Assembly: GCA_046339595.1 (NCBI GenBank)
Contig: JBKDUF010000096.1
Location: forward strand, 18,207-82,206
Length of the DNA: 64,000 bases
Direction of reading: 5' to 3'
Source of the DNA: Betaproteobacteria bacterium
GTDB taxonomy: Bacteria; Pseudomonadota; Gammaproteobacteria; Burkholderiales; SG8-41
This document shows positions 7,415-61,293 of the stretch, in pieces. Position 1 is the first letter of the stretch, and each line of letters starts with the position of its first letter. The notes under the pieces were generated by a model, which had not been told where the DNA came from, searched no databases, and saw nothing but the letters and a program-made list of their open reading frames with translations. Position numbers and translations under genes: made by a program.

Positions 7415-8698
7415 ATGAAGATCCATATCAAATCCGGACGGCTGATCGATCCCAGGCACGGTGTCGATGCCCAGCGCGATGTCTACATCGCCGCCGGAAA
7501 AATCGTTGCCATCGGCGAAGCCCCGGCCGGCTTCAGCGCAAACCGGGTGATCGATGCCGCTGGCCGGGTGGTGTGCCCGGGACTGGTGGACCTCGCGGTG
7601 CGGCTGCGCGAGCCGGGTTACGAGTACCTGGCCACGCTGGAAACCGAAATGAGGGCGGCGATTGCCGGCGGCGTGACCAGCCTGGCCTGCCCGCCGGATA
7701 CCGATCCGCCCCTCGACGAGCCGGGCCTGGTGGAAATGCTCAAGTTCAGCGCCCGCAACCTGAACCAGGCGCACCTGTATCCGGTGGGTGCGCTGACCGC
7801 CGGCCTCAAGGGCAAGAACCTGACCGAAATGGCCGAGTTGCGCGACGCCGGCTGCGTCGCCTTCTCCCAGGCCGAAGCCCCATTTGCCGACACCCAGGTG
7901 CTGATGAACGCGCTGCAATACGCCGCGACCTTCGGCATCCCGGTGTGGTTACGCGCGCAGGATCCGGCGCTCGCCCGCCACGGCGTCGCCCATGAGGGCG
8001 AAGTGGCCACCCGCCTCGGACTGCCAGCGATCCCGGTCATGGCCGAGACCGTGGCACTGTCGACGATCCTGCTGATCGCACGCGAGACCGGCGCGCGCAT
8101 CCACATCGCGCGGATCTCATCCGCCGAGGCAGTGGCCATGGTGCGCGATGCCAAGGCACGCGGTCTGCCGGTGACCTGCGACATCGGCGTCCACCACCTC
8201 CACCTGTCGGAGATGGACATTGGCTACTTCGACCCCAATTGCAACCTGACCCCGCCATTGCGCAGCCAGCGTGACCGCGATGCGCTGCGTGGGGGACTGG
8301 CCGACGGCAGCATCGACGCGCTGTGCTCGGACCACACGCCAGTGGACGAGGACGCCAAGCAGCTGCCTTTCTCCGAGGCCGAACCCGGCGCCACCGGCGT
8401 CGAACTGCTGCTGCCGCTGACGCTGAAATGGGCCGCAGAGGAAAAGCGTCCGCTGGCCGCCGCAATCGAACGCATTACCGTGAAGCCGGCGGCAATCCTC
8501 GGCATCGACGCCGGCCATCTCGGTGTCGGTGCCAGCGCCGATGTCTGCATCTTCGATCCGGGCTGCGACTGGCGCATCGAGCCATCCGCGCTGTTCAGCC
8601 TGGGCAAGAACACGCCCTTCTCGGGCTACGAGATGCGTGGCCGGGTGACCCACACCCTGGTCAGCGGCAATCTCGTCTACGAGAAAAAATCTAATTAA
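7415..8698 (+). CDS. Dihydroorotase-like protein (non-catalytic PyrC'-type ATCase partner)
   Basis: Amidohydrolase/DHOase fold following pyrB. The canonical metal-binding D-x-H-x-H is replaced by GLVDLAVRLREPG (no histidines), as in Pseudomonas-type PyrC'. Confidence 0.85.
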   Translation: MKIHIKSGRLIDPRHGVDAQRDVYIAAGKIVAIGEAPAGFSANRVIDAAGRVVCPGLVDLAVRLREPGYEYLATLETEMRAAIAGGVTSLACPPDTDPPLDEPGLVEMLKFSARNLNQAHLYPVGALTAGLKGKNLTEMAELRDAGCVAFSQAEAPFADTQVLMNALQYAATFGIPVWLRAQDPALARHGVAHEGEVATRLGLPAIPVMAETVALSTILLIARETGARIHIARISSAEAVAMVRDAKARGLPVTCDIGVHHLHLSEMDIGYFDPNCNLTPPLRSQRDRDALRGGLADGSIDALCSDHTPVDEDAKQLPFSEAEPGATGVELLLPLTLKWAAEEKRPLAAAIERITVKPAAILGIDAGHLGVGASADVCIFDPGCDWRIEPSALFSLGKNTPFSGYEMRGRVTHTLVSGNLVYEKKSN

Positions 8699-8710
8699 AT
8701 CAATAATTTA
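8691..8710 (+). repeat. AT-rich motif copy (CTAATTAAATCAATAATTTA), IHF-consensus-like core at 8698-8710
   Basis: Matches the window consensus TCAATYAAAWCAA-N4-TTA with 2 mismatches. AATCAATAATTTA fits WATCAANNNNTTR exactly. Overlaps the last codons and stop of pyrC'. Confidence 0.6.
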
Positions 8711-8840
8711 TAAATATTCCCGGGGCGCCGCACGGCGCTCTGCTGGTAAACTTGCGGCTGTGTTTGCTGTCTGATGCCCGTTGGCTGATCTGCAGCCCGC
8801 CGCACCGCCTGTCCGAATCAACCGCTGATTGAGTACCGTC

Positions 8841-10880
8841 ATGAATCCCCTGCTAGATTGTTCGGGCCTGCCCCGCTTCGCCGATTTCAAACCCGAGCTG
8901 GTCGCGCCCGCCGTTGACCAGCTGCTCGCAGAAAACCGCGCGCTGATTGCGCGCCTCGCCGCCGATCCCGCGGCACCGACCTGGGACAACTTCGCCGGCC
9001 CGCTGGAAGATGCCAACGAGCGCCTGCACCGCGCCTGGGGCCAGGTCGGCCATCTCAATGCGGTGGTGAACAGCCCGGAGCTGCGCGAGGCCTACAACGG
9101 CAATCTGCCGAAAATCTCCCAGTACTACACCGAGCTCGGCCAGCATGAGGGGCTGTACAAAAAATTCAAGGCGCTGCGCACATCCGCTGTGTACGACGGG
9201 CTGGCCGCAGCGCAGAAAAAAATCATCGACAACGAGGTGCGCGATTTCCGCCTCGGCGGCGCCGAACTCGCCGCAGACAAGCGGCCACGCTACACCGAAA
9301 TCCGCGACCGGCTGTCGATGCTCGGCTCGCGCTTCAGCGACAACCTGCTTGACGCGACGAACGCCTGGTCGCACTTCATCCGCGATGAGGCCGGACTCGC
9401 CGGACTGCCCGACGATGCGCGCGAGGCCGCGCGCGAAGCGGCGCAGGCCGACGGCAAAGACGGCTGGAAATTCACGCTGCATGCGCCTTCCTACCTGCCG
9501 GTACTGCAATACGCCGACGATCGCGGCCTGCGCGAGCGCATGTACCGCGCCTATGTCACGCGCGCTTCCGAATTCGGGGACGCCAAACTCGACAACACCC
9601 CGCTGATCACCGAAATTGTCGCGCTGCGCCGCGAAATGGCGCAGCTGCTCGGGTTCGCCAGCTATGCCGAGTATTCGCTCGAGGCCAAGATGGCGGACAC
9701 GCCGCAGCAGGTGATGCAGTTCCTGCGCGACCTCGCCGCGCGCGCAAGGCCCCATGCCGAAAAAGACCTCTCCGAACTGCGCGACTTCGCGCGCAAGGAA
9801 CTGGGCATGACGGCGCTCGAGGCCTGGGACATCGCCTATGTCTCGGAGAAACTGCGTGCCGCGCGTTACGCCTTCTCCGAAAACGAGGTCAAGCAGTATT
9901 TCCCTGAAACCACGGTGCTGCCCGGGATGTTCAAGGTTGTCGAAACGTTGTTCGGCCTCACCATCAGTCCGACCGAGGCGCCGACCTGGCATCCGGACGT
10001 GCGCTTTTTCTCGATCCGCGACAAAGCCGGCGCGCTGGTCGGCCAGTTCTACCTCGACCTCTACGCGCGTTCGACCAAGCGCGGCGGCGCGTGGATGGAT
10101 GATGCGATCACCCGCCGCGCCACCGCCGCCGGCACGCAGACGCCGGTGGCTTATCTCAACTGCAATTTTTCCGCGCCCATCTCGGGAAAGCCCGCGCTGT
10201 TCACCCATGACGAGGTGATCACGCTGTTCCACGAGTTCGGCCACGGACTGCACCACCTGCTCACCCGCGTCGACTACCTCGGCGTGTCCGGCATCAACGG
10301 CGTGGAATGGGATGCGGTGGAACTGCCCAGCCAGTTCATGGAGAACTTCTGCTGGGAGTGGGGTGTGGTGGAACCGATGACCCGCCACGCCGACAGCGGC
10401 CAGCCACTGCCACGCGCACTGTTCGACAAGATGGTGGCGGCGAAGAACTTCCAGAGCGGCCTGCAGACGCTGCGCCAGGTCGAATTCGGCCTGTTCGACC
10501 TGCACCTGCACCACGACTTCGATCCTGCCGGCGGCGGCACTGCGCAGCAGCTGCTCGACCAGGTGCGGCGCGAGGTGGCCGTGCTGCTGCCGCCCCCGTA
10601 CAACCGCTTCCCCAACAATTTCTCGCATATCTTCGCCGGCGGATATGCCGCGGGCTATTACAGCTACAAGTGGGCCGAGGTGCTGTCCGCCGACGCCTAC
10701 AGCCTGTTTGAGGAAAACGGCGTGCTCGATGCCGGCACCGGCCGCCGTTTCTGGGATGAAGTGCTGGGCGTGGGCGGCAGCAGGCCGGCGCTTGAATCCT
10801 TTGTCGCCTTCCGCGGCCGCGAACCGAAGATCGATGCCCTGCTGCGCCACAACGGCATGGTCGAACCGCAGCCGGCCTGA
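8841..10880 (+). CDS. prlC: Oligopeptidase A (M3 family zinc metallopeptidase)
   Basis: HEFGH zinc motif (LFHEFGHGLHH). The N-terminus MNPLLDCSGLPRFADF resembles PrlC. The ORF-track start at 8829 is TTG; the ATG at 8841 is preferred. Confidence 0.92.
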   Translation: MNPLLDCSGLPRFADFKPELVAPAVDQLLAENRALIARLAADPAAPTWDNFAGPLEDANERLHRAWGQVGHLNAVVNSPELREAYNGNLPKISQYYTELGQHEGLYKKFKALRTSAVYDGLAAAQKKIIDNEVRDFRLGGAELAADKRPRYTEIRDRLSMLGSRFSDNLLDATNAWSHFIRDEAGLAGLPDDAREAAREAAQADGKDGWKFTLHAPSYLPVLQYADDRGLRERMYRAYVTRASEFGDAKLDNTPLITEIVALRREMAQLLGFASYAEYSLEAKMADTPQQVMQFLRDLAARARPHAEKDLSELRDFARKELGMTALEAWDIAYVSEKLRAARYAFSENEVKQYFPETTVLPGMFKVVETLFGLTISPTEAPTWHPDVRFFSIRDKAGALVGQFYLDLYARSTKRGGAWMDDAITRRATAAGTQTPVAYLNCNFSAPISGKPALFTHDEVITLFHEFGHGLHHLLTRVDYLGVSGINGVEWDAVELPSQFMENFCWEWGVVEPMTRHADSGQPLPRALFDKMVAAKNFQSGLQTLRQVEFGLFDLHLHHDFDPAGGGTAQQLLDQVRREVAVLLPPPYNRFPNNFSHIFAGGYAAGYYSYKWAEVLSADAYSLFEENGVLDAGTGRRFWDEVLGVGGSRPALESFVAFRGREPKIDALLRHNGMVEPQPA

Positions 10881-10934
10881 GGGCCTGCTCGCGGTATCAT
10901 CGCTGCGCCAGCACCACTACGGCGGAGGCCCGAC

Positions 10935-11522
10935 ATGCGCAAAACCTGCACCCTGATCCTTGCCCTGCTGCTTTGCGGCGGCGCCCAGGCCGCCCAGCTT
11001 TACCGCTGGGTTGACGACAAGGGCCGCGTCGAATGGCGCGACACGCCGCCGCCGCCCAACGCCAAGAAGGTAGAGCGCCGCAGCGTTGGCGGCAGCGTGG
11101 TCGAAACCTCGACCCTGCCCTTCAGCGTGCAGCAGGCGATGCAGAACTTCCCGCTGGTGCTCTATGTCACCGACTGCGGTGAAGGCTGCACCAAGGCGCG
11201 TGAACACCTCAACCGCCGCGGCCTGCCCTATACCGAGCGTAACCCTCAGGACGATTTCGAGGCCTTTCGCAAACTCACCGATGGCCGGGTCGAGGTGCCG
11301 CTGCTTTTCGTCGGCCGCCAGGCTTTGCGCGGCTACGAGCAGGGCGCCTGGGATACGGCACTCGACGCAGCGGGTTACCCGCGCGTGGTGATCGGCGCCA
11401 AGCCCCAGCCCAAGCCCGCGCCGGCGGCCAAACCGCCCGCAGCGGCCCCAGCCGGCGAAGCCGCGGCCGCGCCTGCAGCAGGCACACCAGCTGCAGCAGC
11501 CACCCCGCCCGCCACCCCTTGA
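10935..11522 (+). CDS. DUF4124 domain / glutaredoxin-like secreted protein with Ala/Pro-rich tail
   Basis: Signal peptide MRKTCTLILALLLCGGAQA, DUF4124-like LYRWVDDKGRVEWRDTPPPP, and a glutaredoxin-like VLYVTDCGEGCTKAREHL. Confidence 0.7.
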   Translation: MRKTCTLILALLLCGGAQAAQLYRWVDDKGRVEWRDTPPPPNAKKVERRSVGGSVVETSTLPFSVQQAMQNFPLVLYVTDCGEGCTKAREHLNRRGLPYTERNPQDDFEAFRKLTDGRVEVPLLFVGRQALRGYEQGAWDTALDAAGYPRVVIGAKPQPKPAPAAKPPAAAPAGEAAAAPAAGTPAAAATPPATP

Positions 11523-12286
11523 AGCTTGCCACCTGGAACGTCAACTCGCTGAAGGTCCGGCTGCCGCAGGTGCTGGACTGGCTGGCACAACACCGGCCCG
11601 ATGTGCTGTGCCTGCAGGAAACCAAGCTCGAGGATGCGAACTTCCCGCGCGCCGAACTGGAAGCCGCCGGTTACCAGGCTGCTTTCAGCGGCCAGAAAAC
11701 CTACAACGGCGTCGCCATCCTCAGCCGCAAGCCGGTGACGGAGGTCATCACCGGCATACCCGGCTACGCCGACCCGCAGAAGCGGGTGATCGCGGCCACG
11801 CTCGACGGTGTGCGCGTGGTCTGCGGCTACATGCCCAACGGTGAATCGGTGGAATCCGACAAATACCGTTACAAGCTTGAATGGTATGCCGCGCTCACCG
11901 GATGGCTGCGGGACGAGCTGCAGCGCCACCCGAAACTCGCCCTGCTTGGAGACTTCAACATCGCTCCGGCGGATGCCGATGTGCATGACCCGCAGGCCTG
12001 GGCCGGGAAGGTGCTGTGCAGCGAGCCTGAACGCGCGGCCTTCGGCGCCCTGGTGGCGCTGGACCTGTCCGACACCTTCCGCCAGTTCCAGCAGCCAGAG
12101 CGTTCGTATTCGTGGTGGGATTACCGGATGAATGCCTTCCGCCGCAAGATGGGCCTGCGCATCGACCACATCCTCGCCTCGAAACCGCTGGCGGCGACCT
12201 GCACGTCAGCGCTCATTGACACCGCACCCCGCGGCAACGAACGGCCTTCGGACCACGCGCCGGTGGTGGCCGAATTCTCGGCCTGA
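11519..12286 (+). CDS. xthA: Exodeoxyribonuclease III
   Basis: MKLATWNVNSLKVRL..., LCLQETK and C-terminal SDHAPVVAEF match the EEP nuclease family. The TTG start overlaps the upstream stop. Confidence 0.9.
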   Translation: MKLATWNVNSLKVRLPQVLDWLAQHRPDVLCLQETKLEDANFPRAELEAAGYQAAFSGQKTYNGVAILSRKPVTEVITGIPGYADPQKRVIAATLDGVRVVCGYMPNGESVESDKYRYKLEWYAALTGWLRDELQRHPKLALLGDFNIAPADADVHDPQAWAGKVLCSEPERAAFGALVALDLSDTFRQFQQPERSYSWWDYRMNAFRRKMGLRIDHILASKPLAATCTSALIDTAPRGNERPSDHAPVVAEFSA

Positions 12287-12293
12287 CGGGCGC

Positions 12294-13697: not shown

Positions 13698-13714
13698 GAT
13701 TTCGCTTCTTTCGG

Positions 13715-16963: not shown

Positions 16964-17017
16964 TCTGATTCTCCTAACGATTGCTGATTAAGGGAAAAAT
17001 GCTCCACCAACATTATG

Positions 17018-17033
17018 AGCAGGATATGTACCA
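17018..17033 (-). promoter_or_regulatory. sigma54 (-24/-12) promoter, glnAp2-like
   Basis: The minus strand reads TGGTAC-ATATC-CTGCT versus consensus TGGCAC-N5-TTGCW, with GG and GC correctly spaced. It sits roughly 40-45 nt of leader before the glnA ATG. Confidence 0.7.
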
Positions 17034-17094
17034 AGGCAGTGCATTGCTAAGTACCTGAGCGCAATGGCCAAAATAATGCGGGCAAGGCCAGCGC

Positions 17095-17111
17095 TGCACC
17101 ATATATGTGCA
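17095..17111. promoter_or_regulatory. NtrC binding site (enhancer) 1
   Basis: TGCACC-ATATA-TGTGCA versus consensus TGCACC-N5-GGTGCA (1 mismatch). Roughly 95-100 bp upstream of the inferred sigma54 start. Confidence 0.7.
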
Positions 17112-17124
17112 ACAAATTCCATGA

Positions 17125-17141
17125 CGCACAATTATAGTGCA
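17125..17141. promoter_or_regulatory. NtrC binding site (enhancer) 2
   Basis: CGCACA-ATTAT-AGTGCA (9/12 half-site matches). Centre about 30 bp from site 1. Overlaps the sigma70-like -10 box. Confidence 0.55.
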
Positions 17142-17159
17142 TTTTGAAAGCCCTGTCGC
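17131..17159 (-). promoter_or_regulatory. sigma70 promoter candidate, glnAp1-like
   Basis: The minus strand reads GCGACA-17 bp-TATAAT. The -10 box is embedded in NtrC site 2, analogous to the enteric glnAp1/p2 arrangement. Confidence 0.45.
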
Positions 17160-17339
17160 ACCAGCGCAATCCGGCAGAGCGCATCATTTTTGCCACTTTC
17201 CGGGTCATGTGGCCACGGAGGAATCCCCCGCGCCTTAAATCGGTGCGCAAGTCACCGAAGGGCCTGAAGCGGCCCACTCACCTCGTCCGGGTCTGCGCTG
17301 ACAGGTCGGACTGTCACCGGCAATTTTGGCAGACGGCCT

Positions 17340-22970: not shown

Positions 22971-23339
22971 GTGCTGTGCCTGCTCGCCGGCGCCGTGCCG
23001 CCCGTCGCTGCGGCCGAGGCGCGCATCATCGTCCAGCAGTCGCCGCTGGCCGGTTTCCAGTATTACGACGGCAAGGTGCTGTGGGACGACATGCGCGTCG
23101 GCGATGTGCTGGTGCTGGTGCGCGAACCGCAGAATCCGCATGATGCCAACGCGGTGCGCGTGGAATGGAAAGGCCAGGCACTGGGTTATGTGCCACGGCG
23201 CGACAACGCGGATGTCGCGCGGCAGATGGACCGCGGCGAAAAACTGCAGGCACGCATCATCCGCCTGACCGAGGCCCGCAACCCCTGGCAGCGCGTGCAA
23301 TTCGAGGTCTATGCCGAAATGCCGGTGGTGAAGCGCTGA
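22971..23339 (+). CDS. HIRAN domain-containing protein
   Basis: GFQYYDG...GDVLVLVREPQNPHDANAVRVEW..GQALGYVPRRDNADVARQMD matches the HIRAN pattern. It is the tail of ORF 22581..23339. Start ambiguous (GTG 22971, or CTG 22947 giving a signal-peptide-like N-terminus). Confidence 0.65.
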   Translation: MLCLLAGAVPPVAAAEARIIVQQSPLAGFQYYDGKVLWDDMRVGDVLVLVREPQNPHDANAVRVEWKGQALGYVPRRDNADVARQMDRGEKLQARIIRLTEARNPWQRVQFEVYAEMPVVKR

Positions 23340-24493
23340 TGGAACGTTTTTTCGCAAGCTGCCCGCGCGGACTCGAAGGCGTGCTCGGCGAGGAATTGCA
23401 GTCCCTCTCCGCCTCGAAGCTTGAGCCCGTCGATGGCGGCGTTGGCTTCAGCGGTCCCTATGCGCTGTGCCGTACCGTCAACCTGATGAGCCGCATCGCC
23501 AGCCGCGTGCTCTGGCGCGTCGGAGCAGCCCGTTACCGCAGCGAAATCGACATCTTCAACGCGGCCAAACGCATTCCCTGGGGCCAATGGTTCGGCCCGC
23601 AGCAAACCATCCGGGTCGACACCGCCGCCATCCGGAGTCCGCTCAACAGCATCGACATTGTCACGCTGCGGGTGAAAGACGCGGTCTGCGACGTGCTGCG
23701 CGAAACCGCAGGCAGCCGTCCCGATGTGGATACCCGCAACCCCGACGTACGCATCCAGGTCTTCCTGACCCGCGACGAAGCGGTGTTCTACCTCGACACC
23801 TCCGGTGATGCGCTGTTCAAGCGCGGCTGGCGCGGCGCAGCCGGGGAGGCGCCTCTGCGCGAAAATCTCGCCGCCGGCATCCTCAAGCTGACCGGCTGGA
23901 CAGCCGATGTGCCGCTGCTCGATCCGATGTGCGGCAGCGGCACCTTCCTGATCGAGGCCGCGCTGATGGCGCGTGGCCGCGCCCCCGGGCTGGGCCGCCG
24001 CTTCGGCTTCGAGAACCTGAAGAACCACGACGCCGCAGCCTGGCAGCGCGAACGTGACCATGCAGCAGCCCAAGAAAATAAATCAATCAAAACAAGGGTT
24101 TATGGTTATGATCGCAGCGGAGATGCGATCGCCATCGCCCGCCGCAACGCCGAGGCGCTGGGCCTGCAGGACGACATCGCGCTAAAGCAATGCAGCCTCG
24201 AGGATTCCAAGCCGCCGCTGCCCTCGGGCCTGCTCATCACCAACCCGCCCTATGGCGTGCGCCTGGAAGAACTCGACGACCTCGCCGCCTGGTATCCCAA
24301 ACTCGGCGACATCCTGAAGCAGCGTTATGCGGGATGGACCGCGTACATCTTCACCGCCGACCTGCGCATCGCCAAGCTGATGCGGCTGCAGCCGTCGCGA
24401 CGCACGCCGCTCTTCAATGGCGCGCTGGAGTGCCGCTTGTTCCGCTACGAGATCGTGGCGGGAAGCATGCGCAAACCCAAAGCGGAAAACTGA
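23339..24493 (+). CDS. THUMP-domain class I SAM-dependent RNA methyltransferase (RlmL N-terminal-half-like)
   Basis: Starts at an ATG overlapping the upstream stop (MERFFASCPRGLEGVLGEEL). SAM motif DPMCGSGTFLIEAA and catalytic ITNPPYG. Confidence 0.85.
   Translation: MERFFASCPRGLEGVLGEELQSLSASKLEPVDGGVGFSGPYALCRTVNLMSRIASRVLWRVGAARYRSEIDIFNAAKRIPWGQWFGPQQTIRVDTAAIRSPLNSIDIVTLRVKDAVCDVLRETAGSRPDVDTRNPDVRIQVFLTRDEAVFYLDTSGDALFKRGWRGAAGEAPLRENLAAGILKLTGWTADVPLLDPMCGSGTFLIEAALMARGRAPGLGRRFGFENLKNHDAAAWQRERDHAAAQENKSIKTRVYGYDRSGDAIAIARRNAEALGLQDDIALKQCSLEDSKPPLPSGLLITNPPYGVRLEELDDLAAWYPKLGDILKQRYAGWTAYIFTADLRIAKLMRLQPSRRTPLFNGALECRLFRYEIVAGSMRKPKAEN
24083..24102 (+). repeat. AT-rich motif copy inside the methyltransferase CDS (TCAATCAAAACAAGGGTTTA)
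   Basis: Perfect match to TCAATYAAAWCAA-N4-TTA. In frame it encodes part of ENKSIKTRVYGYD using mostly A/T-ending codons. Confidence 0.6.
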
Positions 24494-24548
24494 CGCTGCG
24501 TTTTCCGGCGTAGCGCTTGCAGCAGCCGCGACCAACCCGGAGCCCGCG

Positions 24549-25706
24549 TCAACGCGCGAGATAGCCTGCGTCAAGCTTGCCGATTTCGGGACACCCCATC
24601 ATCGCGAGGATGCGGTCGATCTCGTCACGATAAATCTCGATGGCCCGCGCAGCCCCCGCCTCCCCGGCCATCGCCAGCCCGTAGAGCGTAGCACGGCCGA
24701 TCATCACCGCATCGGCGCCCAGGGCAAGGCCCTTGATCACGTCGGAGCCGCGCCGGAAACCACTGTCAACGATCACCGTGACCCGGCTGCCGACAGCCTC
24801 GACCACCTCGGGCAGGATTTCAATCGGTGCCCGGGTGCTGTCCAGGGCGCGACCGCCATGGTTGGAAACGATCACGCCATCCACGCCGCATTCGGCGGCG
24901 AGCTTTGCGTCTTCGGCGCGCAGGATGCCCTTCACCAGCAGCGGACGTGGCCACAGCCTGCGGATTTCGCGCAGGTCATCCCAGGTCAGCGAGTCGCTGA
25001 CCATCATCGAGCGGCCCATCGGCAGCGCGGTGATTTTGGTTTTCATCGCGGTCGGGTAGTTCTCGTAGCGGGGCATGCCGGTGGTGAGCAGGTAGCGCAG
25101 CAGCACACCGGCAAGCCAGCGCGGATGCAGCAGAACATCCGTGACATTGCGCCGCGTGAAGCGGAACGGCACGGTCATGCCGTTGCGCAGGTTGTACTCG
25201 CGCCCCGGCGGCACCGGCGTATCCACCGTCACCACCAGCGCCTGGTAGCCGGCGGCTTTGGCACGCTCGATCAGTGCATGCGAGGCGGCGCGGTCGGGCC
25301 ACATGTAGACCTGGAACCACAGTTCGCCACCGGCTTCAGCGGCGACGCGCTCCAGCGCGGTCATCGATCCAGTGGCGAGCGTGTACGGAATGCCTGCTGC
25401 CCTCGCCGCGCGGGCCAGCGCGACCTCACCCTCGTACCAGGCCAGCCCCGCGGAGCCGGTGGGGCCGACCACGACCGGCATGGCCTGCGTCTTGCCGAAA
25501 AGGCTGATGTGCTGCGAGCGCCGGGAGGTGTCGACCAGCATGTGCGGATTGAGCTTGATGCGCTCGAACGCTGCGCGGTTGTTGGCAAGCGCCACCTCGT
25601 CGCCATTGCCGCGATCAAAAAACTCGAACACGCCGCGCGGCAGGCGCTGGCGTGCCTGTTCGCGCAAGTCGGCAATGTCGTAGGCGCCCAGTGTAGGTTC
25701 TGACAT
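24549..25706 (-). CDS. FMN-dependent alpha-hydroxy acid dehydrogenase/oxidase (L-lactate dehydrogenase LldD-like)
   Basis: VIVSNHGGRALD active-site motif and TIM-barrel FMN family. The ATG at 25706 (MSEPTLGAYDIADL) is preferred over the TTG at 25715. Confidence 0.85.
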   Translation of the reverse strand: MSEPTLGAYDIADLREQARQRLPRGVFEFFDRGNGDEVALANNRAAFERIKLNPHMLVDTSRRSQHISLFGKTQAMPVVVGPTGSAGLAWYEGEVALARAARAAGIPYTLATGSMTALERVAAEAGGELWFQVYMWPDRAASHALIERAKAAGYQALVVTVDTPVPPGREYNLRNGMTVPFRFTRRNVTDVLLHPRWLAGVLLRYLLTTGMPRYENYPTAMKTKITALPMGRSMMVSDSLTWDDLREIRRLWPRPLLVKGILRAEDAKLAAECGVDGVIVSNHGGRALDSTRAPIEILPEVVEAVGSRVTVIVDSGFRRGSDVIKGLALGADAVMIGRATLYGLAMAGEAGAARAIEIYRDEIDRILAMMGCPEIGKLDAGYLAR

Positions 25707-25711
25707 TTTAT

Positions 25712-25731
25712 TCAATTAAATCAATAAGTTA
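25712..25731 (+). repeat. AT-rich motif copy (TCAATTAAATCAATAAGTTA), IHF-consensus-like core at 25719-25731
   Basis: Perfect consensus match. AATCAATAAGTTA fits WATCAANNNNTTR exactly. It fills the 22-31 nt spacer between the tauE stop and the lldD-like start. Confidence 0.65.
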
Positions 25732-25737
25732 TTACGA

Positions 25738-26496
25738 CTAAACGGGGGCGCGAATGCCCCGCAACAGCAACGATCCGCCGATCAGCAGCAGCAGAATGCT
25801 GACCACACGCAGCAGGCTCTGCCGCGAGGCCCTGAGCTGGATGCGATGGCCGGCCCAGATGCCGCCAAGTGCAAAGGGTATCAGTAGCAGCGCACCCAGC
25901 ACGCGGTCCCACAGCATCAGGCCGCCGGCGAGGAACACCAGCGCGCGAATTGAGGTCGACAGTAGCACCATGTTCGACAGTGTGGCGCGCAACACCGCCT
26001 TGTCGGGCAGGCGCCGCGACAGGTAGACCGCATAGGGCGGTGCGCCGACACCGAACAGTGTGCCCGACGCGCCACCGCAGAAGCCGGAGATTACCGCCCA
26101 GGGATGGCGCGAGATGCCGCCCTGCGGCACGCCGGCATACAGCGAATACAGGCCGTAGCCGCAGAGAAAAACGCCAAAGGCGAAAAGGGTGGCCTGGTGC
26201 GGGATGGTCACCAGCGCGGTGACGCCGGCCACCGCGCCGGCCAGCGAAAACGGCGCCATCCATTTCAGCTCGCCAAGGTCGGCATCCCTGGAAAAGCGCG
26301 AGCCCAGCGCGAAGGATGCCGAGACGTCGAGGATCACGCACATCGGCAGCACAAAGGACAGCGGGAAAAAAAACGACAGCGCCGGCACCGTGAACATCGC
26401 CGCACCGAAGGCGGTAACGCCGAAGATCACGTAGGAGGCCGCGACTATTGCCGCACAGGCGGCCCAGGTGTCCAGCCCGAAAGGCAGGGCATCCAT
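25738..26496 (-). CDS. Sulfite exporter TauE/SafE family membrane protein
   Basis: Polytopic membrane protein of about 250 aa with TauE-like repeats. The ATG at 26496 is preferred over the upstream TTG codons. Confidence 0.8.
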   Translation of the reverse strand: MDALPFGLDTWAACAAIVAASYVIFGVTAFGAAMFTVPALSFFFPLSFVLPMCVILDVSASFALGSRFSRDADLGELKWMAPFSLAGAVAGVTALVTIPHQATLFAFGVFLCGYGLYSLYAGVPQGGISRHPWAVISGFCGGASGTLFGVGAPPYAVYLSRRLPDKAVLRATLSNMVLLSTSIRALVFLAGGLMLWDRVLGALLLIPFALGGIWAGHRIQLRASRQSLLRVVSILLLLIGGSLLLRGIRAPV

Positions 26497-35470: not shown

Positions 35471-36123
35471 TCCTGTGAATACAGGCCATGTTCCTGAATA
35501 TATTGAATAACCGCATCGGGCAGCAAGTAACGCGTGGTGGCGCCACGGCGCAGCGAGTCCCGGATCAGCGTCGCCGAGATGTCAAGCGCGGCGATCGGCA
35601 CTACAACGATGCCGCCTGCGGGCGCAGTATGCACTCCCAAAGGCTGCTGCATCAGCCGCGCCTGGTACTCGGCAGCCAGCGGCTGGGGCATTCGCATCTG
35701 CCAGGTATCCACCGGAAAACCCGGGCGATAGGCGACAGCGATGTGTGCAAGGTCGAACAACTGGTGCCAGCGGCTCCAGGTGGCCAGGTCAAGAAAGGCA
35801 TCAGCCCCGGTGAGCAGCACCAGCGGTTGATCCGCTCCGGCCTGCTCGCGCAGTTCCTTCAGCGTGTCCACCGTGTATCCGGGACCGCTGCGGCGGAGTT
35901 CGCGCTCGTCCACGGTGAACAGTGAATTTTCCGCCACGGCCAGGCGCACCATCGCCAGCCGGTCCTCAGCGGTGGCGCCGGGCAACGCGCGGTGCGGCGG
36001 CGTGCCACTGGGGATGAAACGCACCTCGGACAGCCGCAGCTTGTCGGCTGCTTCCTGCGCCAGCCGCAGGTGCCCGTAATGCACGGGGTCAAAGGTGCCG
36101 CCCAGGATGCCGATGGCAGACAT
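35467..36123 (-). CDS. nadD: Nicotinate-nucleotide adenylyltransferase
   Basis: GILGGTFDPVHYGHLRLA (the (H/T)xGH motif). nadD-rsfS-rlmH synteny is conserved. Confidence 0.92.
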   Translation of the reverse strand: MSAIGILGGTFDPVHYGHLRLAQEAADKLRLSEVRFIPSGTPPHRALPGATAEDRLAMVRLAVAENSLFTVDERELRRSGPGYTVDTLKELREQAGADQPLVLLTGADAFLDLATWSRWHQLFDLAHIAVAYRPGFPVDTWQMRMPQPLAAEYQARLMQQPLGVHTAPAGGIVVVPIAALDISATLIRDSLRRGATTRYLLPDAVIQYIQEHGLYSQD

Positions 36124-43011: not shown

Positions 43012-43036
43012 CGCTAGGCGCTTTCGCTTTGTTTAC

Positions 43037-43050
43037 TTACGTTTACGTAA
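43037..43050. promoter_or_regulatory. Palindromic operator candidate TTACGT-TT-ACGTAA (MerR/LiuR-like site)
   Basis: Perfect 6+6 inverted repeat, 26 bp upstream of the phaC ATG and 97 bp upstream of the divergent MerR-family gene. Confidence 0.5.
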
Positions 43051-43146
43051 AAGCAATGTTAAAATGGATCAATCAAATAAGTCCTGATAATTCAAGCATG
43101 AAGGCAAATTGCCCGAATACTATACATTCAATTGCTGCATAGCACA

Positions 43147-43548
43147 ATGAGCAAAACTTACACCATCAGCGAATTGGCCGAAGAATTCGGTGTGACCACG
43201 CGCACCCTCCGTCACTACGAAGACGAGGGCCTGGTCACACCGGCCCGAGAGGGCTTGCAGCGCCTCTACAGCCACCGCGACCGGGTGCGGTTGAAACTTG
43301 CCCTGCGCGGCAAGCGACTGGGTTTCTCGCTGAGCGAATTACGCGAGCTGTTCCAGCTCTACGATTTGGCCAACGACGAACGCCGGCAACTGGAAGAGTT
43401 TGCCGTGAAACTCGAGCGCCGTCGCGCCCAGCTGGAGCAGCAGCGGGAAGATGTCGAGATCATGCTCAATGAAATCAATTTTTTTTCCAATCAGTGTCAG
43501 CGCCTGCTCGCCGAGTCTGACACCGGCAAGAATCCGGTGTCTGGATGA
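43147..43548 (+). CDS. MerR-family transcriptional regulator (LiuR-like)
   Basis: MSKTYTISELAEEFGVTTRTLRHYEDEGLV (MerR HTH) plus a coiled-coil dimerisation helix. It lies upstream of the enoyl-CoA hydratase and HMG-CoA lyase genes. Confidence 0.8.
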   Translation: MSKTYTISELAEEFGVTTRTLRHYEDEGLVTPAREGLQRLYSHRDRVRLKLALRGKRLGFSLSELRELFQLYDLANDERRQLEEFAVKLERRRAQLEQQREDVEIMLNEINFFSNQCQRLLAESDTGKNPVSG

Positions 43549-43561: not shown

Positions 43562-43577
43562 TTAACGTAAAAGTAAA
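43562..43577. promoter_or_regulatory. Degenerate second copy of the ACGTAA-type operator (TTAACGTAAAAGTAAA)
   Basis: Shares 12/19 positions with the 43033-43051 site. Located between the regulator stop and the next gene. Confidence 0.3.
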
Positions 43578-43580
43578 ATA

Positions 43581-43600
43581 TCAAATAAAACAATGGGTTA
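43581..43600 (+). repeat. AT-rich motif copy (TCAAATAAAACAATGGGTTA)
   Basis: One mismatch to TCAATYAAAWCAA-N4-TTA. Ends 8 nt before the ATG at 43608. Confidence 0.55.
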
Positions 43601-43607
43601 GCGCTGG

Positions 43608-50422: not shown

Positions 50423-50499
50423 AGGGAAAATTTGGCGCGCCCGAGACGATTCGAACGTCCGACCCCTGCCTTCGGAGGGCAGTACTCTATCCAGCTGAG
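50423..50499 (-). tRNA. tRNA-Arg (anticodon CCG)
   Basis: The reverse complement GCGCCCGTAGCTCAGCTGGATAGAGTACTGCCCTCCGAAGGCAGGGGTCGGACGTTCGAATCGTCTCGGGCGCGCCA folds as a cloverleaf. Anticodon loop is CTCCGAA, T-loop is TTCGAAT, and CCA is encoded. Confidence 0.93.
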
Positions 50500-50573
50500 C
50501 TACGGGCGCGTAACCGGTTCAATTCTAGCACGCCCCCCTCAGCGCCCGTTTTACCGGGGGTGGTGTAGCCGGC

Positions 50574-55452: not shown

Positions 55453-55660
55453 CGTGAGGCTTTCACTGGGGGTAAAAGAGGCGCGCATTATAGCAACGTG
55501 CCCGTATCGCTCCCTGTGATCCCGTCGCCCCGCGGCGACATCGGCGATAGCGCACTGCACGCCGCGGCCGCATAATCTGCGCAGGCGCAACCACCGCCGG
55601 TGATCGCTGTCGGCCCAACCCGAAAAATCCACACTTCACCCAGGGAGAGGAAGCTCAACC

Positions 55661-56086: not shown

Positions 56087-56101
56087 AAGCCGCCACGCCC
56101 G

Positions 56102-56130
56102 AAAAAAACGCGCCCGGTGGCGCGTATTTT
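56102..56130. terminator. Bidirectional rho-independent terminator between mscL and gcvH
   Basis: CGCGCC-CGGT-GGCGCG stem flanked by AAAAAAA on the left and TATTTT on the right. Confidence 0.75.
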
Positions 56131-56148
56131 CCGCTGGGTAGCACAAGC

Positions 56149-56529: not shown

Positions 56530-56547
56530 CACAACCTCAAAAAATAT

Positions 56548-56567
56548 TCAATTAAAACAAATACTTA
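56548..56567 (+). repeat. AT-rich motif copy (TCAATTAAAACAAATACTTA)
   Basis: Perfect match to TCAATYAAAWCAA-N4-TTA. It sits in the 41-44 nt spacer between the zinc-ribbon gene stop and the gcvH start. Confidence 0.6.
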
Positions 56568-56573
56568 AAAACA

Positions 56574-57566
56574 TCAGGGCGCGGCAGCCAATACCGCGAG
56601 CCTGAACCCGGAGGCCCCGACACCGCCGGCATCGAGTGCCAGGCGCACCGTCATTTCGGCCTGGGTGGCAAGACCGGCGGACCGATCGATGTTGGCCGGC
56701 AGATAATCCGCGGGCAGGAAAATGCGCCGCGCCAGGGTATGGTCATTGGCATTGGTCAAGACCAGATCCAGCGCCGGAAATCCGACGGCATGTGCCGCGT
56801 GATTGCGCAGGGTCGCCGTGAGCTGGATGCGTTCGGGGCGCGCCGGATCAATCACCTGCAAATCGGAACCCTCGATCATCACCTGCCGCGGTCGCTGCGG
56901 CATCTCGACCGCACAGCCGGCCATCTCACAGGCCGCGCTGACCCATTCGCGCGCCAGTACGTGACGCGCGGCCAGTTCGCCGCGATAGGCGTAAACCGCC
57001 TGCCCGGCCAGCAGCAGCACCAGGAGCACGCTCGCCAGCGCATAGACACGGCGACGCGGTTCGGGCGCCCTCGCAGGCGCGGCGGCGATGAAGGGATTGT
57101 CATCGGTGGCCGCGTATGGCGTCGCCGGCGCGGCATCCACCCCGGTCAGGTGCGCCTCTTCGTGGACAGTTTCCCCAGGCAGGCTGCCGGACTGGGCTGT
57201 CGCCTCGGGCATCTGGTTTTCGGCTGCCGGCAGCGCAACGGCTTCAACGCAATCCGTGGGGGTTGTGGCGGGTGTCGCGGCGATGGCCGCGTCAGCCCCG
57301 CCCTCGACCCTGGCCTGCGCGGAGATGACCGCCTCCGGCGCAGACTCCTGCACCGCTGCCGGATGAGGCGGCAATGAAGGCGTGGCCGTTGTGGCTGGCA
57401 CCACCACAGCCGCAGACGGATCCGGCTCCAGTCCGGCCAAGGCATCAAAGACCCGAAGACAACGGCCGCAACGAACCCGACCGGCGCGCGAGCGCAGCTG
57501 TTTGGCGGTGACGCGGAACACCGTGTGGCAATGCGCGCAGCGGGTGGTGAGCGAGGAGGCGTTCAT
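56574..57566 (-). CDS. Zinc-ribbon (MJ0042-type) and DUF3426 domain protein
   Basis: N-terminal TRCAHCHTVFRV...VRCGRCLRVFDA zinc ribbon, a low-complexity linker, a TM helix and a C-terminal DUF3426-like domain. Confidence 0.75.
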   Translation of the reverse strand: MNASSLTTRCAHCHTVFRVTAKQLRSRAGRVRCGRCLRVFDALAGLEPDPSAAVVVPATTATPSLPPHPAAVQESAPEAVISAQARVEGGADAAIAATPATTPTDCVEAVALPAAENQMPEATAQSGSLPGETVHEEAHLTGVDAAPATPYAATDDNPFIAAAPARAPEPRRRVYALASVLLVLLLAGQAVYAYRGELAARHVLAREWVSAACEMAGCAVEMPQRPRQVMIEGSDLQVIDPARPERIQLTATLRNHAAHAVGFPALDLVLTNANDHTLARRIFLPADYLPANIDRSAGLATQAEMTVRLALDAGGVGASGFRLAVLAAAP

Positions 57567-57617
57567 CGGGAATCTGGCCGGACCTGCATCATACCGAAGC
57601 TTGGGACATCTCCCGGA

Positions 57618-58511
57618 TCAGTGCCTGCGCTGGCCGGTCAGCAGCACCCAGCCTTCATGCTCCGCCTCGCAACGCATGTCGAAGGCGCAGGCATAGGCGG
57701 CCAGCACCGCCGCGGCCTGCTCGGCCAGGATGCCGGCGAGTGCGATCCGCCCGCCGGGCAGGGTCAGGCCTGCCAGCAGCGGGGCCAGTACCATCAGCGG
57801 ATTGGCAAGAATGTTGGCAATGACGATGCGCGCAGGGGCCACGGCGGCCTCGTCGGCCACCACGAACCGGGCCACAACGCCGTTGCGCGCGGCATTGAGC
57901 CGGGCTGCTTCCACCGCCTGCGGATCAATATCGATGCCGCGGGCGCTACAGGCGCCGAGCTTCAGCGCGGCGATGGTGAGGATGCCGGAACCGCAGCCGT
58001 AGTCGAGCACATCGTCGTCCGCCGTCACGGTCGAGGCGAGCCAGCGCAGGCAAAGCCTGGTGGTCGGGTGCGCCCCGGTGCCGAAGGCAACGCCGGGATC
58101 GAGCGCAATATTGATCGCGTCCGGATCAGGCGGCTGGTGCCAGCTCGGCACGATCCACAGCCGGGGCGTGATCTGCAGCGGCTGGAACTGGCTCTGGGTG
58201 AGGCGCACCCAGTCTTCATCCTCGACGCGACCGAGGCTGCAGGCCGTGCCGGCATCAAGCCCCGCCGCTGTCAGCGCCAGCGCCAGCAAGGCGGGTACAC
58301 TGGCGTCCGTTTCGAACAGCGCGCTCACGCGATTGAGCTGCCAGCCGCTGGCGGGGGCTTCGCCGGGCTCGGCAAAAATCGGCCGCTCCGCCGGCGTGCC
58401 GGCTGCCGCATCCTGCACATCCACCGCCACCGCCCCGGCTTCGAGCAGGGCATCGCTCAGCGCTTCGACGGCGTTCTCCGGAGCCAGCAGCGTCGCGCAG
58501 AGCCAGGGCAC
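57618..58511 (-). CDS. prmA: Ribosomal protein L11 methyltransferase
   Basis: The GTG at 58511 gives MPWLCATLLAPENAVEAL (typical PrmA start), 8 nt after the accC stop. SAM motif DYGCGSGIL. Confidence 0.9.
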   Translation of the reverse strand: MPWLCATLLAPENAVEALSDALLEAGAVAVDVQDAAAGTPAERPIFAEPGEAPASGWQLNRVSALFETDASVPALLALALTAAGLDAGTACSLGRVEDEDWVRLTQSQFQPLQITPRLWIVPSWHQPPDPDAINIALDPGVAFGTGAHPTTRLCLRWLASTVTADDDVLDYGCGSGILTIAALKLGACSARGIDIDPQAVEAARLNAARNGVVARFVVADEAAVAPARIVIANILANPLMVLAPLLAGLTLPGGRIALAGILAEQAAAVLAAYACAFDMRCEAEHEGWVLLTGQRRH

Positions 58512-58518
58512 GGGATGA

Positions 58519-59874
58519 CTATTCCGCCCGGTTGAGCTTGGCGAGCCGCTCTTCGAGGTAGTGGATGCTGGTGCCGCCGCGGCGGAATGCGGTGTCACGC
58601 ATCAGCTCCTGATGCAGCGGCAGATTGGTCTTGATGCCCTCGATGGCCGTTTCCGACAGCGCGATGTTCATGCGCGCGATGGCCTGTTCCCGGGTGTCAC
58701 CGTAGGCGATGATCTTGCCCAGAAGGGAATCATAGTTGGGCGGCACGAAGTAGCCGTTGTAGACATGGGAATCGACGCGGATGCCGGGCCCACCGGGCAT
58801 GTGCAGCGAGGTGATGCGCCCCGGCGAGGGCGTGAACTTGTAAGGATCCTCGGCATTGATGCGGCATTCGATGGCATGGCCTTTGAGCACCACGTCGCGC
58901 TGGCGCACCGTGAGCTTGTCGCCGGCGGCGATGCGGATCTGCCACTGCACCAGGTCAAGGCCGGTCACACACTCGGTCACCGGATGTTCGACCTGGAGCC
59001 GGGTGTTCATCTCGATGAAGTAGAACTCGCCGTTCTCGTAGAGGAATTCGAAAGTGCCGGCGCCCTGGTAGCCGATCTTGCGGCAGGCCTCGGCGCAGCG
59101 TTCGCCGATTCGCGCACGGGCCTTGGCGTCAAGCAGGGGGGCCGGCGCCTCCTCGATGATCTTCTGGTGACGTCGCTGCATCGAGCAGTCGCGGTCGCCC
59201 AGATAAAGCGCGTTCCTGTGCTTGTCTGCGAGCACCTGGATCTCGATGTGGCGCGGCTTCTCCAGGTATTTCTCCATGTACACGGCAGGATTGCCGAAGG
59301 CGGCGCCGGCCTCGGCGCGGGTGGTGTTAACGGCGTGGATCAGCGCCGCCTCGGTGTGCACCACGCGCATGCCGCGCCCGCCACCACCGCCAGCAGCCTT
59401 GATGATCACCGGATAGCGGATCTGCCGCGCGATGCGCACCACCTCCTTGGGGTCTTCGGGCAGCGCGCCGTCCATACCAGGCACCACGGGCACGCCGGCC
59501 TTTTTCATCGCATTCTTGGCGCTGACCTTGTCGCCCATCAGGCGGATGGTCTCGGCCTTGGGCCCGATGAATGTGAAACCGCTCTGCTCCACGCGTTCGG
59601 CAAAATCCGCGTTCTCGGACAGGAATCCGTAGCCGGGATGAATGGCCTGGGCATCGGTGACCTCAGCCGCGCTGATGATCGCCGGCACGTTGAGATAGCT
59701 CGCGCTCGACTGCGCGGGGCCGATGCATACCGACTCGTCGGCCAGGCGTACGTATTTGGCCTCGGCGTCGGCCTCGGAGTGCACGACCACGGTCTTGATG
59801 CCCATCTCGCGGCAGGCGCGCTGGATGCGCAGGGCGATTTCGCCGCGATTGGCGATCAGGATTTTGTCAAACAT
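58519..59874 (-). CDS. accC: Acetyl-CoA carboxylase biotin carboxylase subunit
   Basis: [29 protein letters not shown] matches the AccC N-terminus. An alternative ATG is at 59883. Confidence 0.95.
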
Positions 59875-59920
59875 GGGTTTCATCGGCCCGCCTTGCGGCG
59901 GCCGGAACGGTTGCGAGCGC

Positions 59921-60379
59921 TCATCCGATGATGAACAGCGGCTGGCCGTATTCCACCGGCTGGCCGTTTTCAACCAAAATCGCCTTGATCACGCCGTCAC
60001 GGTCGGCCTCGATCTCGTTGAGCAGCTTCATCGCCTCGATGATGCAAACCGTGTCGCCGCTTTTCACCGCAGCGCCGACCTCGACAAAGGGCTTCGATCC
60101 AGGCGCCGAGGAACGGTAGAAGGTGCCGACCATCGGCGACTTCACCGCATGGCCTTCGGGCTCGGCCTCGCCTGTCTCGGCCGCCGCGGTTGCGCTGTCG
60201 GCGGCCTCTGCCGCCGGAATCACCACTGCCGGCGCGGCTATCGGCGCCGCCATCGCAGTGGGCGCAACGCCGCCAAAGCGGCTGATACGCACCTTCTCCT
60301 CGCCCTCGGTGATTTCGAGTTCGGCAATGCCGGACTGTTGCACCAGATCAATCAGGGTTTTCAGTTTTCTCAGATCCAT
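59921..60379 (-). CDS. accB: Acetyl-CoA carboxylase biotin carboxyl carrier protein
   Basis: Biotinyl-lysine motif [11 protein letters not shown] and an Ala/Pro linker. Confidence 0.95.
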
Positions 60380-60391
60380 GTGGGTCCTCGT

Positions 60392-60844
60392 TCAGCCTTT
60401 GTCGCGCAACTGGCGCAGGGCGTAATCCAGCGCGAACTCGTATCCGGCCGGCCCCAGCCCGCAGATGACTCCCGCGGCCAGATCGGAAAAGTACGACTGG
60501 CGGCGGAAGGCCTCACGCGCATGCACGTTGGAAAGGTGGATTTCGATGAAAGGTATGGCCACCGCGGCCAGCGCATCACGCAGGGCCACGCTGGTGTGGG
60601 TGTAGGCGGCGGGGTTGATCAGGATGAATGCGGTGCCATCCCGCCCGGCCTGCTGTACACGCTCCACCAGACCGGATTCGGAATTGCTCTGGAAGCAGTC
60701 CAGCATCGCGCCGGCGGCTGCGGCACGCTCACGCAGCCCGGTTTCGATCTGGGCGAGGGTGGTTGCGCCGTAGATGCCGGGCTCGCGTGTTCCGAGCAGA
60801 TTGAGATTGGGCCCGTTGATCAGGAGCAGTGTGTTCGGTTTCAA
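60392..60844 (-). CDS. aroQ: Type II 3-dehydroquinate dehydratase
   Basis: [21 protein letters not shown] and [15 protein letters not shown] motifs. TTG start. Confidence 0.93.
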
Positions 60845-60875
60845 GCGGCAGCCGATCCTGGGTGAAGTTCACAGT

Positions 60876-60881
60876 TATAAT
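60876..60881. promoter_or_regulatory. TATAAT box with ambiguous strand assignment
   Basis: The plus strand reads GTTATAATCC, like the other -10 boxes in this window but with no plus-strand gene downstream. The minus strand reads TTATAAC about 30 nt upstream of the aroQ TTG. No good -35 on either strand. Confidence 0.3.
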
Positions 60882-60887
60882 CCAGGC

Positions 60888-61015
60888 ACAACGCCCTGGC
60901 CGTCACCACAACCGTCAACACCGACCGGGGTCGGCGGCAACTAATTGGAGTAGAGGCGATTTTCCCAGAAATTGGACTCAATTGTCTAATTTTAAGCGAA
61001 AGTTAGCGCTTTTTG
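60888..61015 (+). ncRNA. Speculative small RNA candidate (orphan -10 box to weak hairpin plus T5)
   Basis: Bounded by TATAAT (60876-60881) and AAGCG-N8-CGCTT followed by TTTT (60994-61014). It contains the CGACC-GG-GGTCG hairpin and an AU-rich stretch AATTGGACTCAATTGTCTAATTTT. Sequence pattern only. Confidence 0.15.
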
Positions 61016-61273
61016 AGGCCGACTCTCCCGCCCCTGCCTGCCGCAGCCTGCACCTACTCCCACGCCTCAACCAGCACCGCTGGCAGCATGGTTGCGGAGT
61101 GCATCCCTGCCCGAAAAGCTGGCCAGCCCGGATTCATCCGCCAGCCATGCCGCCGCCTGACCAAACCCGTTTTTTCACGAAGTTAAGCGATGTAAGCCGA
61201 AGTTCAGCAATAAATAACCGCTGAGGAACGATTTATCCGATTCGGTCCGGAAGTGTGCTGCCGGCAAAAATAT

Positions 61274-61293
61274 GCAATCAAATCAATGGGTTA
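61274..61293 (+). repeat. AT-rich motif copy (GCAATCAAATCAATGGGTTA), IHF-consensus-like core at 61281-61293
   Basis: One mismatch to the consensus. AATCAATGGGTTA fits WATCAANNNNTTR exactly. It overlaps the last codons (QSINPLI-stop) of the minus-strand tlpA-like gene. Confidence 0.6.

Follow-up and report, generated by a model that had tools for sequence, protein, structure and literature searches.

The DNA considered here is a stretch of 64,000 nucleotides, called the window throughout, from a Betaproteobacteria bacterium (GenBank assembly GCA_046339595.1, contig JBKDUF010000096.1, positions 18,207 to 82,206 of the forward strand). Its G+C content is 65%, and it carries six strong copies of an AT-rich motif of about 31 bp, AAA(W)4-TCAAT-AAAWCAA-N4-TTA, whose elements fall in register with those of a binding site for integration host factor (IHF). 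Exact protein matches place it in metagenome-assembled genomes of uncultured Betaproteobacteria (GCA_021300125.1, GCA_046345695.1 and others). The gene map was drawn from G+C content at third codon positions (GC3) together with Pfam. The copies were scored in bits, on both strands, with a 31-nt position weight matrix (PWM) built from the family copies. The six copies and one marginal match are as follows.

8682–8712, + strand: family copy AGAAAAAATCTAATTAAATCAATAATTTATA, PWM 44.1; overlaps the last codons and the TAA stop (8696–8698) of a + strand dihydroorotase-like gene, with the oligopeptidase A gene ~130 nt downstream.
24074–24104, + strand: family copy GAAAATAAATCAATCAAAACAAGGGTTTATG, PWM 44.7; in frame within a THUMP/RlmL-type RNA methyltransferase gene (~23339–24493).
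25703–25733, + strand: family copy ACATTTTATTCAATTAAATCAATAAGTTATT, PWM 41.0; between two − strand genes, a few nt past the TauE stop (25738–25740) and ~8 nt before the start of a flavin mononucleotide (FMN)-dehydrogenase gene (~25703).
43572–43602, + strand: family copy AGTAAAATATCAAATAAAACAATGGGTTAGC, PWM 35.2; between two + strand genes, after the stop of a MerR-family gene (43548), its end 8 nt short of the start of a DSBA-like gene (43608).
56539–56569, + strand: family copy AAAAAATATTCAATTAAAACAAATACTTAAA, PWM 49.7; between − strand genes, ~6 nt past the stop of DUF3426 (56574) and ~16 nt ahead of the start of gcvH (56532).
61265–61295, + strand: family copy CAAAAATATGCAATCAAATCAATGGGTTAAT, PWM 36.0; overlaps the last codons (..QSINPLI) and the stop (61278–61280) of a − strand AhpC/TSA redoxin gene, upstream of aroQ and ~430 nt from it.
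43456–43486, + strand: marginal match AGATCATGCTCAATGAAATCAATTTTTTTTC (20-nt match at 43466–43485) with 2 mismatches, PWM 17.1, below every true copy; inside the MerR-family gene.

A first-pass annotation of the same DNA had reported a 20-nt motif in six copies at gene boundaries. All six were recovered at their positions on the + strand when the window was searched on both strands with TCAATYAAAWCAANNNNTTA, up to 2 mismatches being allowed and the expectation being taken from shuffled sequence. The 20-nt motif is real, but it turned out to be too short, as a further 10–12 nt with a conserved AAA(W)4 tract belong to its 5′ side; the location at gene boundaries holds for all copies except that at 24083 (24074 in the longer form), which is in frame within a gene. 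The search gave 7 matches, only on the + strand, against 0.01 expected, and raising the tolerance to 3 mismatches added no further ones. The exact IHF 13-mer WATCAANNNNTTR, said to be present in three copies, was indeed found at 8698, 25719 and 61281 (3 found vs. 0.36 expected, so that the earlier rough figure of ~0.2 was of the right order). With the PWM the six strong copies reach 35–50 bits, again on the + strand only, and the maximum in shuffled windows is 7.8 bits.

Since whole-window shuffles are too lenient a null for an AT-rich motif, every AT-rich island of the window (at least 75% A+T over 24 nt) was listed as a harder control. There are 12 such islands in 64 kb: six are the strong copies, three are marginal or sub-threshold matches (246–271, 43028–43095 and 43459–43497), and all nine of these are A-rich on the + strand. 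The remaining three (35487–35511, 60969–61005 and 61507–61530) are unlike the family, with PWM scores of 8 or less; the second of them, in the 430-nt gap upstream of aroQ, coincides in part with a weak match of sigma-70 promoter type on the − strand. In practice, AT-rich island and family motif are one and the same in this genome. The weaker partial copies listed in the first-pass annotation do not belong to the family, their PWM scores being 1.4 (252–271), −13.8 (4836–4848) and 4.8 (43069–43077); the site at 4836 fits the looser pattern WATCARNNNNTTR. Judging by its score, the match at 43456–43486 is probably not a functional member either.

To compare the motif with known IHF sites, 22 family instances were aligned and set beside the H′ site of lambda attP, the sequence of which was confirmed in lambdoid phage records. 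A canonical IHF site has four elements, WATCAA, TTR, two kink steps (mostly AA) 9 bp apart and an A-tract of 4–6 nt in the 5′ half, and IHF prefers sites with the full complement ~2,500-fold. The family consensus .....a.AAAaaaaTCAATaAAAaCAA..a.TTAt...ta aligns in register with H′, AAAAAAGCATTGCTTATCAATTTGTTGCAACGA (7 leading gaps in H′). A-tract falls on A-tract, with AAA(W)4 sharing columns with the AAAAAA of H′. The AA step of TCAAT, 9 bp upstream of the CAA step, is matched in H′ by the TT step of CATTG; AWCAA of the family pairs with ATCAA, and TTA with TTG. Within the family, the 5′ A-tract begins with AAA in 18–21 of 22 copies, continues with four W positions and stands on the same strand as the WATCAA-like core. 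The two AA steps 9 bp apart are provided by TCAAT (19–20 of 22 copies) and then by WCAA. In the core AAWCAA the C, A and A are present in 22, 22 and 20 of the 22 copies, respectively, and exact WATCAA occurs in three of the six window copies. TTA, never TTG, stands 4 nt after the core in all 22, and the N4 between them is variable, among orthologues as well. The information content amounts to 34 bits for the 22 instances and 29.8 bits for 12 independent sites; outside the 31-mer, it falls to background in the 22-instance alignment.

The fit to the 13-mer consensus and the register of the whole 31 bp with four IHF elements support the IHF-type reading first proposed for the motif, and the 9-bp direct repeat TCAAT..TCAAT noticed at that time coincides with the two kink steps of IHF sites. 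Among known sites, lambda H′ resembles the family in its length of ~31–35 bp, its asymmetry, its A-tract, the kink steps 9 bp apart and the order of a WATCAA-like core, N4 and TTR in the same register. It differs in that the family is far more uniform (30–34 bits), always has TTA, keeps TCAAT and AAA fixed and often has A for the T of WATCAA; H′ scores about zero on the family model. This score puts the sequence likeness to H′ at the level of the elements only.

Conservation was followed in loci of relatives, designated here by L-numbers. The close relatives L137 and L138 were among the matches listed in a scan of relatives' contigs, and ~0.93 Mb of non-clade control DNA came from the same scan. 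Conservation in relatives, the lack of which had been named beforehand as grounds for refutation, was found at orthologous sites for four of the six window copies. Orthologues of the copy at 25703 lie just past the TauE stop in L012 (13193), L013 (14083) and L014 (16305). The copy at 56539 is found in the same place and orientation in L337, L339 and L340, and that at 61265 is kept in L337 and L339. L337, with a G+C content of 70%, has just two AT-rich islands in 21 kb, and these are the orthologues of the last two copies. Some copies have been lost or gained between relatives (L338, L340 and the group of L012 3974), which could as well be due to decay or de novo origin as to mobility. That group comprises a reverse-oriented copy downstream of a conserved 317-aa gene (L012 3974–4023, L013 3928–3971, L014 3859–3912 and L137 ~3959); the orthologous spot of the window (~17300) does not have the reverse copy of those four relatives, which was either lost or never present there.

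The core AAWCAANNNNTTA occurs 12.3 times per 100 kb of clade DNA; in other loci with at least 58% G+C, 932 kb in all, the figure is 0.32 per 100 kb. Sites of at least 30 bits are found at 7.2 per 100 kb in four held-out clade loci that did not contribute to the PWM. With 6–7 copies in the 64-kb window and 7–12 per 100 kb in the clade, the density is about 1 per 9 kb. By these counts the family is confined to one clade.

The interval between the methyltransferase gene and TauE (window 24494–25740; ~11150–17250 in L012–L016) is hypervariable among relatives: the window has one FMN-dehydrogenase gene there, and elsewhere it holds HigB/HTH and ParE/antitoxin pairs, a ParA-like gene and small unknown genes. 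The variability extends to L016, which is without the motif. The interval has the look of a hot spot at which accessory genes insert.

The copy at 24074–24104 lies in frame inside a coding sequence, where it encodes ..ENKSIKTRVY.. with the AT-ending codons TCA ATA AAA ACA. The GC3 of the window is ~83%, and the genomes that carry the in-gene copy have an overall G+C content of 58–67%. The segment (E)NKSIKT is kept in methyltransferase homologues down to ~62% identity, and farther off the same place is variable, e.g., RRKPAARLP. An AT-rich island (62–77% A+T) is present there in all seven clade members examined (64–100% identity) and in none of ~75 other homologues, the GC-rich ones having 17–47% A+T. 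An AT island found clade-wide in an otherwise variable loop therefore means that a DNA signal was imposed on a tolerant part of the protein. This comparison indicates that the in-gene copy is under selection at the DNA level, against codon usage and with synonymous positions included.

The orientation of the copies was given particular attention. In the window 6/6 (or 7/7) copies are on the + strand, with a nominal p of 0.03–0.016 for a pattern noticed post hoc, and the first-pass annotation had concluded that orientation appears to follow the chromosome rather than transcription. The absence of reverse copies holds inside the window but not in relatives, where they are common. L012, L013, L014 and L137 have a reverse copy ~7 kb from conserved + copies in the same syntenic block, and L338 and L340 also carry opposite copies within 7–10 kb in the same syntenic block. 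When one site was counted per orthologous group and normalised to the + strand of the window, the 12 independent sites divided 7:5 (p = 0.77). Of 15 contigs, nine have negative GC skew on the motif strand, as do four of the eight longer ones. Orientation is also unrelated to the direction of transcription. The uniform orientation in the window looks like a sampling effect, and the proposal that it is set by the chromosome or the replichore has to be given up in view of the opposite copies, the 7:5 split and the lack of a link with GC skew.

Two wider scans gave little on the family itself. A metagenome scan with the G-containing variant CAAWHAAAWCAAKGGKTTA yielded, among the 120 matches listed, only ~13 GC-rich contigs with family-like copies; these were single copies and therefore allow no useful orientation statistics. 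A scan of viral contigs with TCAATHAAAWCAANNNNTTA gave 120 listed single matches that appeared to be AT-rich noise and are uninformative. About 45 of the 120 listed metagenome matches to CAAWHAAAWCAAKGGKTTA are of a different, unrelated kind, in which an intrinsic terminator with a stem that happens to fit the pattern comes after the 3′ end of a tRNA. The string CCA-ATAAAAWCAAGGGGTTAgc stands directly 3′ of tRNA genes of many specificities in unrelated metagenome contigs of 23–68% G+C (L243, L247, L256, L233, L314, L239, L276, L293, L279, L229, L224 and ~35 more). It is the left arm of the terminator (AAGGGGTTAgc..gcTAACCCCTTtttt), and it is curious that nearly the same stem follows so many tRNAs. 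These matches were obtained because the G-containing pattern selects them. They have neither the A-tract nor TCAAT and do not belong to the window family. The sole tRNA gene of the window, tRNA-Arg (50433–50509), has no family copy or AT-rich island within 5 kb. Another observation concerns L255 (5076–5143) and L304 (7418–7485), of ~62% G+C, which carry a long palindrome, nearly perfect, its arms of ~43 nt (gcatcccctcatttacatttttccCAATAAAATCAATGGGTTA) separated by a 10-nt loop. The inner arms are motif-like (PWM 22–30), and it may be a different element.

With respect to genes, the 12 independent sites comprise seven between co-directional genes, four between convergent genes and one in coding sequence; none is in a divergent promoter region. 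The probability of zero divergent sites among the 11 intergenic ones by chance is ~0.04. Most copies adjoin or overlap a stop codon, in part because the motif itself has stop codons in most reading frames. No association of the copies with terminators was found, and no inverted repeats or hairpins were found at them. Folding of the copies as RNA showed no structure (z from −1.2 to +1.1), and the Rfam scan of the window returned no family. Comparison by eye with other binding sites led to further rejections: for a sigma-70 promoter there is no −35/−10 pair at workable spacing, the half-sites of a would-be FNR/CRP box are direct and not inverted, and Fur, ArcA and PhoB boxes, dif/Xer sites, attC and Tus-Ter were also rejected.

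Two sets of other regulatory signals were seen in the window. Upstream of glnA (− strand; 16964–17160) there are, by eye, two TGCACC..GGTGCA-like NtrC-type sites (~17098–17150) and a sigma-54-like TGGTAC-N5-CTGCT on the − strand (~17010–17025); the family motif is absent between these elements. The MerR-family regulator gene (43132–43548) is flanked by TTTACGTAAA, a perfect palindrome at 43042–43051, and TTAACGTAAA (43562–43571), each directly upstream of a motif-like AT island (3 matches vs. 0.00 expected). Probably these serve the MerR-type regulator as operators, both for its own gene and for the downstream DSBA-like and enoyl-CoA hydratase genes, a layout that we take to be a LiuR-like arrangement.

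The reading that we put forward is that the copies are clade-specific, near-optimal sites for an IHF-type DNA bender, fixed at the ends of transcription units and probably architectural in role; we consider this about evenly balanced between right and wrong. The copies would be high-affinity sites for a DNA-bending protein of the IHF type (DNABII), most simply the host's own IHF. The 5′ A-rich tract would fit one clamp of the protein, the two AA steps 9 bp apart would be where the beta-arm prolines kink the DNA, and the WATCAA-like core (here AAWCAA) with TTA four bases on would supply the remaining recognition elements, the ~31–35 bp being folded into a U-turn on binding. The data show that the motif exists and is enriched, that it is in register with the IHF elements, that it is conserved at orthologous sites, synonymous positions included, and that it is restricted to one clade; from this we infer IHF as the binder and an effect of its binding. 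An architectural role, e.g., as fixed bends or barriers at the ends of transcription units and not as promoter-specific regulation, is suggested because the sites stand at stops and never at divergent promoters, occur about once per 9 kb and keep their place and local orientation. A similar density has been described in a GC-rich organism, Caulobacter crescentus, where chromatin immunoprecipitation sequencing of IHF gave 430 strong peaks in ~4 Mb, some of them intragenic and some without a local transcriptional role. The family resembles those sites in its density, in the presence of some copies in coding sequence and in the conserved TT. Unlike the family, the Caulobacter sites were defined experimentally, and the organism belongs to another class of bacteria.

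Several findings weigh against this reading. Other GC-rich Betaproteobacteria would all be expected to have IHF, but the 932 kb of their loci contain 0 sites at 30 bits or more, and the plain IHF consensus occurs there at only 1.7 per 100 kb. The T of WATCAA, normally well conserved, is T in 7 and A in 15 of the 22 copies. For a few hundred sites per genome, ~14.5 bits would suffice, and the 30–34 bits of the family exceed this need by ~15–20 bits. Lambda H′ reaches only +4.1 bits on the clade PWM with a GC-rich background and −2.5 bits with a uniform one, vs. 35–50 for the family; its profile is positive at the four elements only and negative across TCAAT-AAA and at the G of TTG. Applied to lambda attP with background correction, the clade PWM fails to rank the IHF sites known there. 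The copies show no association with sigma-54 promoters, the classic context of IHF. An IHF/HU homologue was not found in the window and seven clade loci, which is uninformative, as the genes would be elsewhere in the genome. IhfA and IhfB are expected in Proteobacteria generally.

The uniformity of the family exceeds the requirements of IHF, and a further constraint must be at work. Possibilities are an IHF of greater stringency in this clade, a second factor, or selection for the highest affinity in DNA that is GC-rich and stiff. A bolder proposal, which we hold tentatively and think doubtful, is that the family marks an unrecognised clade-restricted genome-wide system, either a dedicated architectural protein of high specificity, or an IHF that has evolved extra specificity, marking the ends of transcription units, or a tag of self-identity or uptake; in both cases selection on the site would be strong enough to have rewritten the loop of a conserved enzyme to NKSIKT throughout a family of uncultured Betaproteobacteria.

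Among the alternatives, the one with most in its favour is that a different clade-specific DNA-binding protein, or a composite of IHF and a partner, recognises the copies, the resemblance to IHF sites being partial or coincidental. We regard it as unlikely, though it deserves serious consideration. It would account for the excess of information, for bases kept invariant beyond the needs of IHF (TCAAT, the AAA ahead of WCAA, and TTA in 22/22), for the strict clade restriction and for the failure of the family PWM on lambda IHF sites. However, four IHF elements in register, including the variable N4, are unlikely to be a coincidence, and no candidate protein was identified. The motif is also asymmetric, and known chromosome-organising factors have palindromic sites.

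The family could also be a DNA uptake signal of the kind known as DUS in Neisseria and USS in Pasteurellaceae, accumulated by biased uptake and recombination within the clade, which we judge improbable. It has the lineage specificity, high information, both orientations, stability at orthologous sites and placement in a poorly conserved, tolerant protein loop that are known of DUS and USS; homologues of the type IV pilus retraction ATPase are present in the window and are seen as T2SSE genes in syntenic loci. For uptake sequences, counts of 765–1,892 per genome have been published, against which the family looks about ten times sparser, with a degenerate centre and almost all copies intergenic. 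The N4 leaves no invariant contiguous core, only 1/12 independent sites is coding, and the IHF register would be a coincidence. In genomes of ~2 Mb, uptake sequences come at about 1 per kb; the family has about 1 per 9 kb.

We give little credence to the idea that the copies are remnants left by a small mobile element, e.g., the IHF-binding core of a Correia-like MITE (a miniature transposable element with inverted repeats) or a bacterial interspersed mosaic element (BIME) containing an IHF site, dispersed long ago and retained. The copies are nearly identical beyond the need of a binding site, and there are precedents of dispersed repeats that carry IHF sites: BIMEs and RIP elements (repetitive IHF-binding palindromic elements) of E. 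coli and the Correia/NEMIS elements of Neisseria likewise provide many near-identical IHF-type sites, mostly at gene ends or in intergenic DNA. Unlike these, the family has neither flanking palindromes of the REP (repetitive extragenic palindromic) type nor terminal inverted repeats, and its positions are stable over deep divergence. Target duplications and REP-like hairpins are absent as well, the similarity ends at the 31-mer, and positions are shared down to 64% protein identity, the motif positions being kept while N4 drifts. The same positions in diverged genomes together with the drift of N4 therefore argue for purifying selection and not for recent spread. The term short dispersed repeat, one of the candidates first named for the motif, is right in that the copies are too alike (~30 bits) for ordinary binding sites, and wrong in that there are no repeat flanks, inverted ends or hairpins and the orthologous positions are stable.

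That the copies work at the RNA level, e.g., as sites for RNase E, as (ARN)n sites for Hfq or as enhancers of translation in AU-rich leaders, appears very improbable: the copies at 25703, 43572 and 56539 do stand just upstream of start codons and the + strand reads as A-rich ARN-like triplets, but with respect to the transcript the copies lie either way round, giving A-rich RNA in some and U-rich RNA in others, some stand between convergent genes, and they have neither structure nor an Rfam match. The two orientations and the lack of a fold therefore suggest that the copies act on DNA and not as RNA. The idea of a replichore-polarised architectural motif with an orientation set by replication, as for KOPS, Chi and Ter, had on its side the uniform + copies and the cumulative GC skew, which declines steadily across the window, but it is no less improbable and is already contradicted, since the orientation of the family, unlike that of those elements, does not track replication direction in the six relatives with opposite copies, in the 7:5 split or in the GC skew of the contigs.

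A literature search, including one with literal strings, did not find the family as such, and in that sense the earlier statement that it is not a described element stands. IHF sites themselves are well known; what appears to be new is a dispersed, high-information, clade-restricted family of IHF-type sites that holds its positions without a REP or MITE context. Should IHF or one of its relatives bind the copies, they would make up an unusually clean natural collection of a few hundred bending sites, near-optimal, fixed at gene ends and visible by eye in GC-rich DNA. Such a collection would be suited to asking what IHF sites away from promoters do, e.g., whether they serve as barriers of domains, as pins for supercoils or as roadblocks to transcription. 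The copy in the methyltransferase gene would be a case in which a DNA-binding signal has outweighed codon usage and amino-acid choice over long evolutionary time. Finally, the excess of ~15–20 bits and the absence from neighbouring lineages go beyond standard IHF biology and may point to a clade-specific factor.

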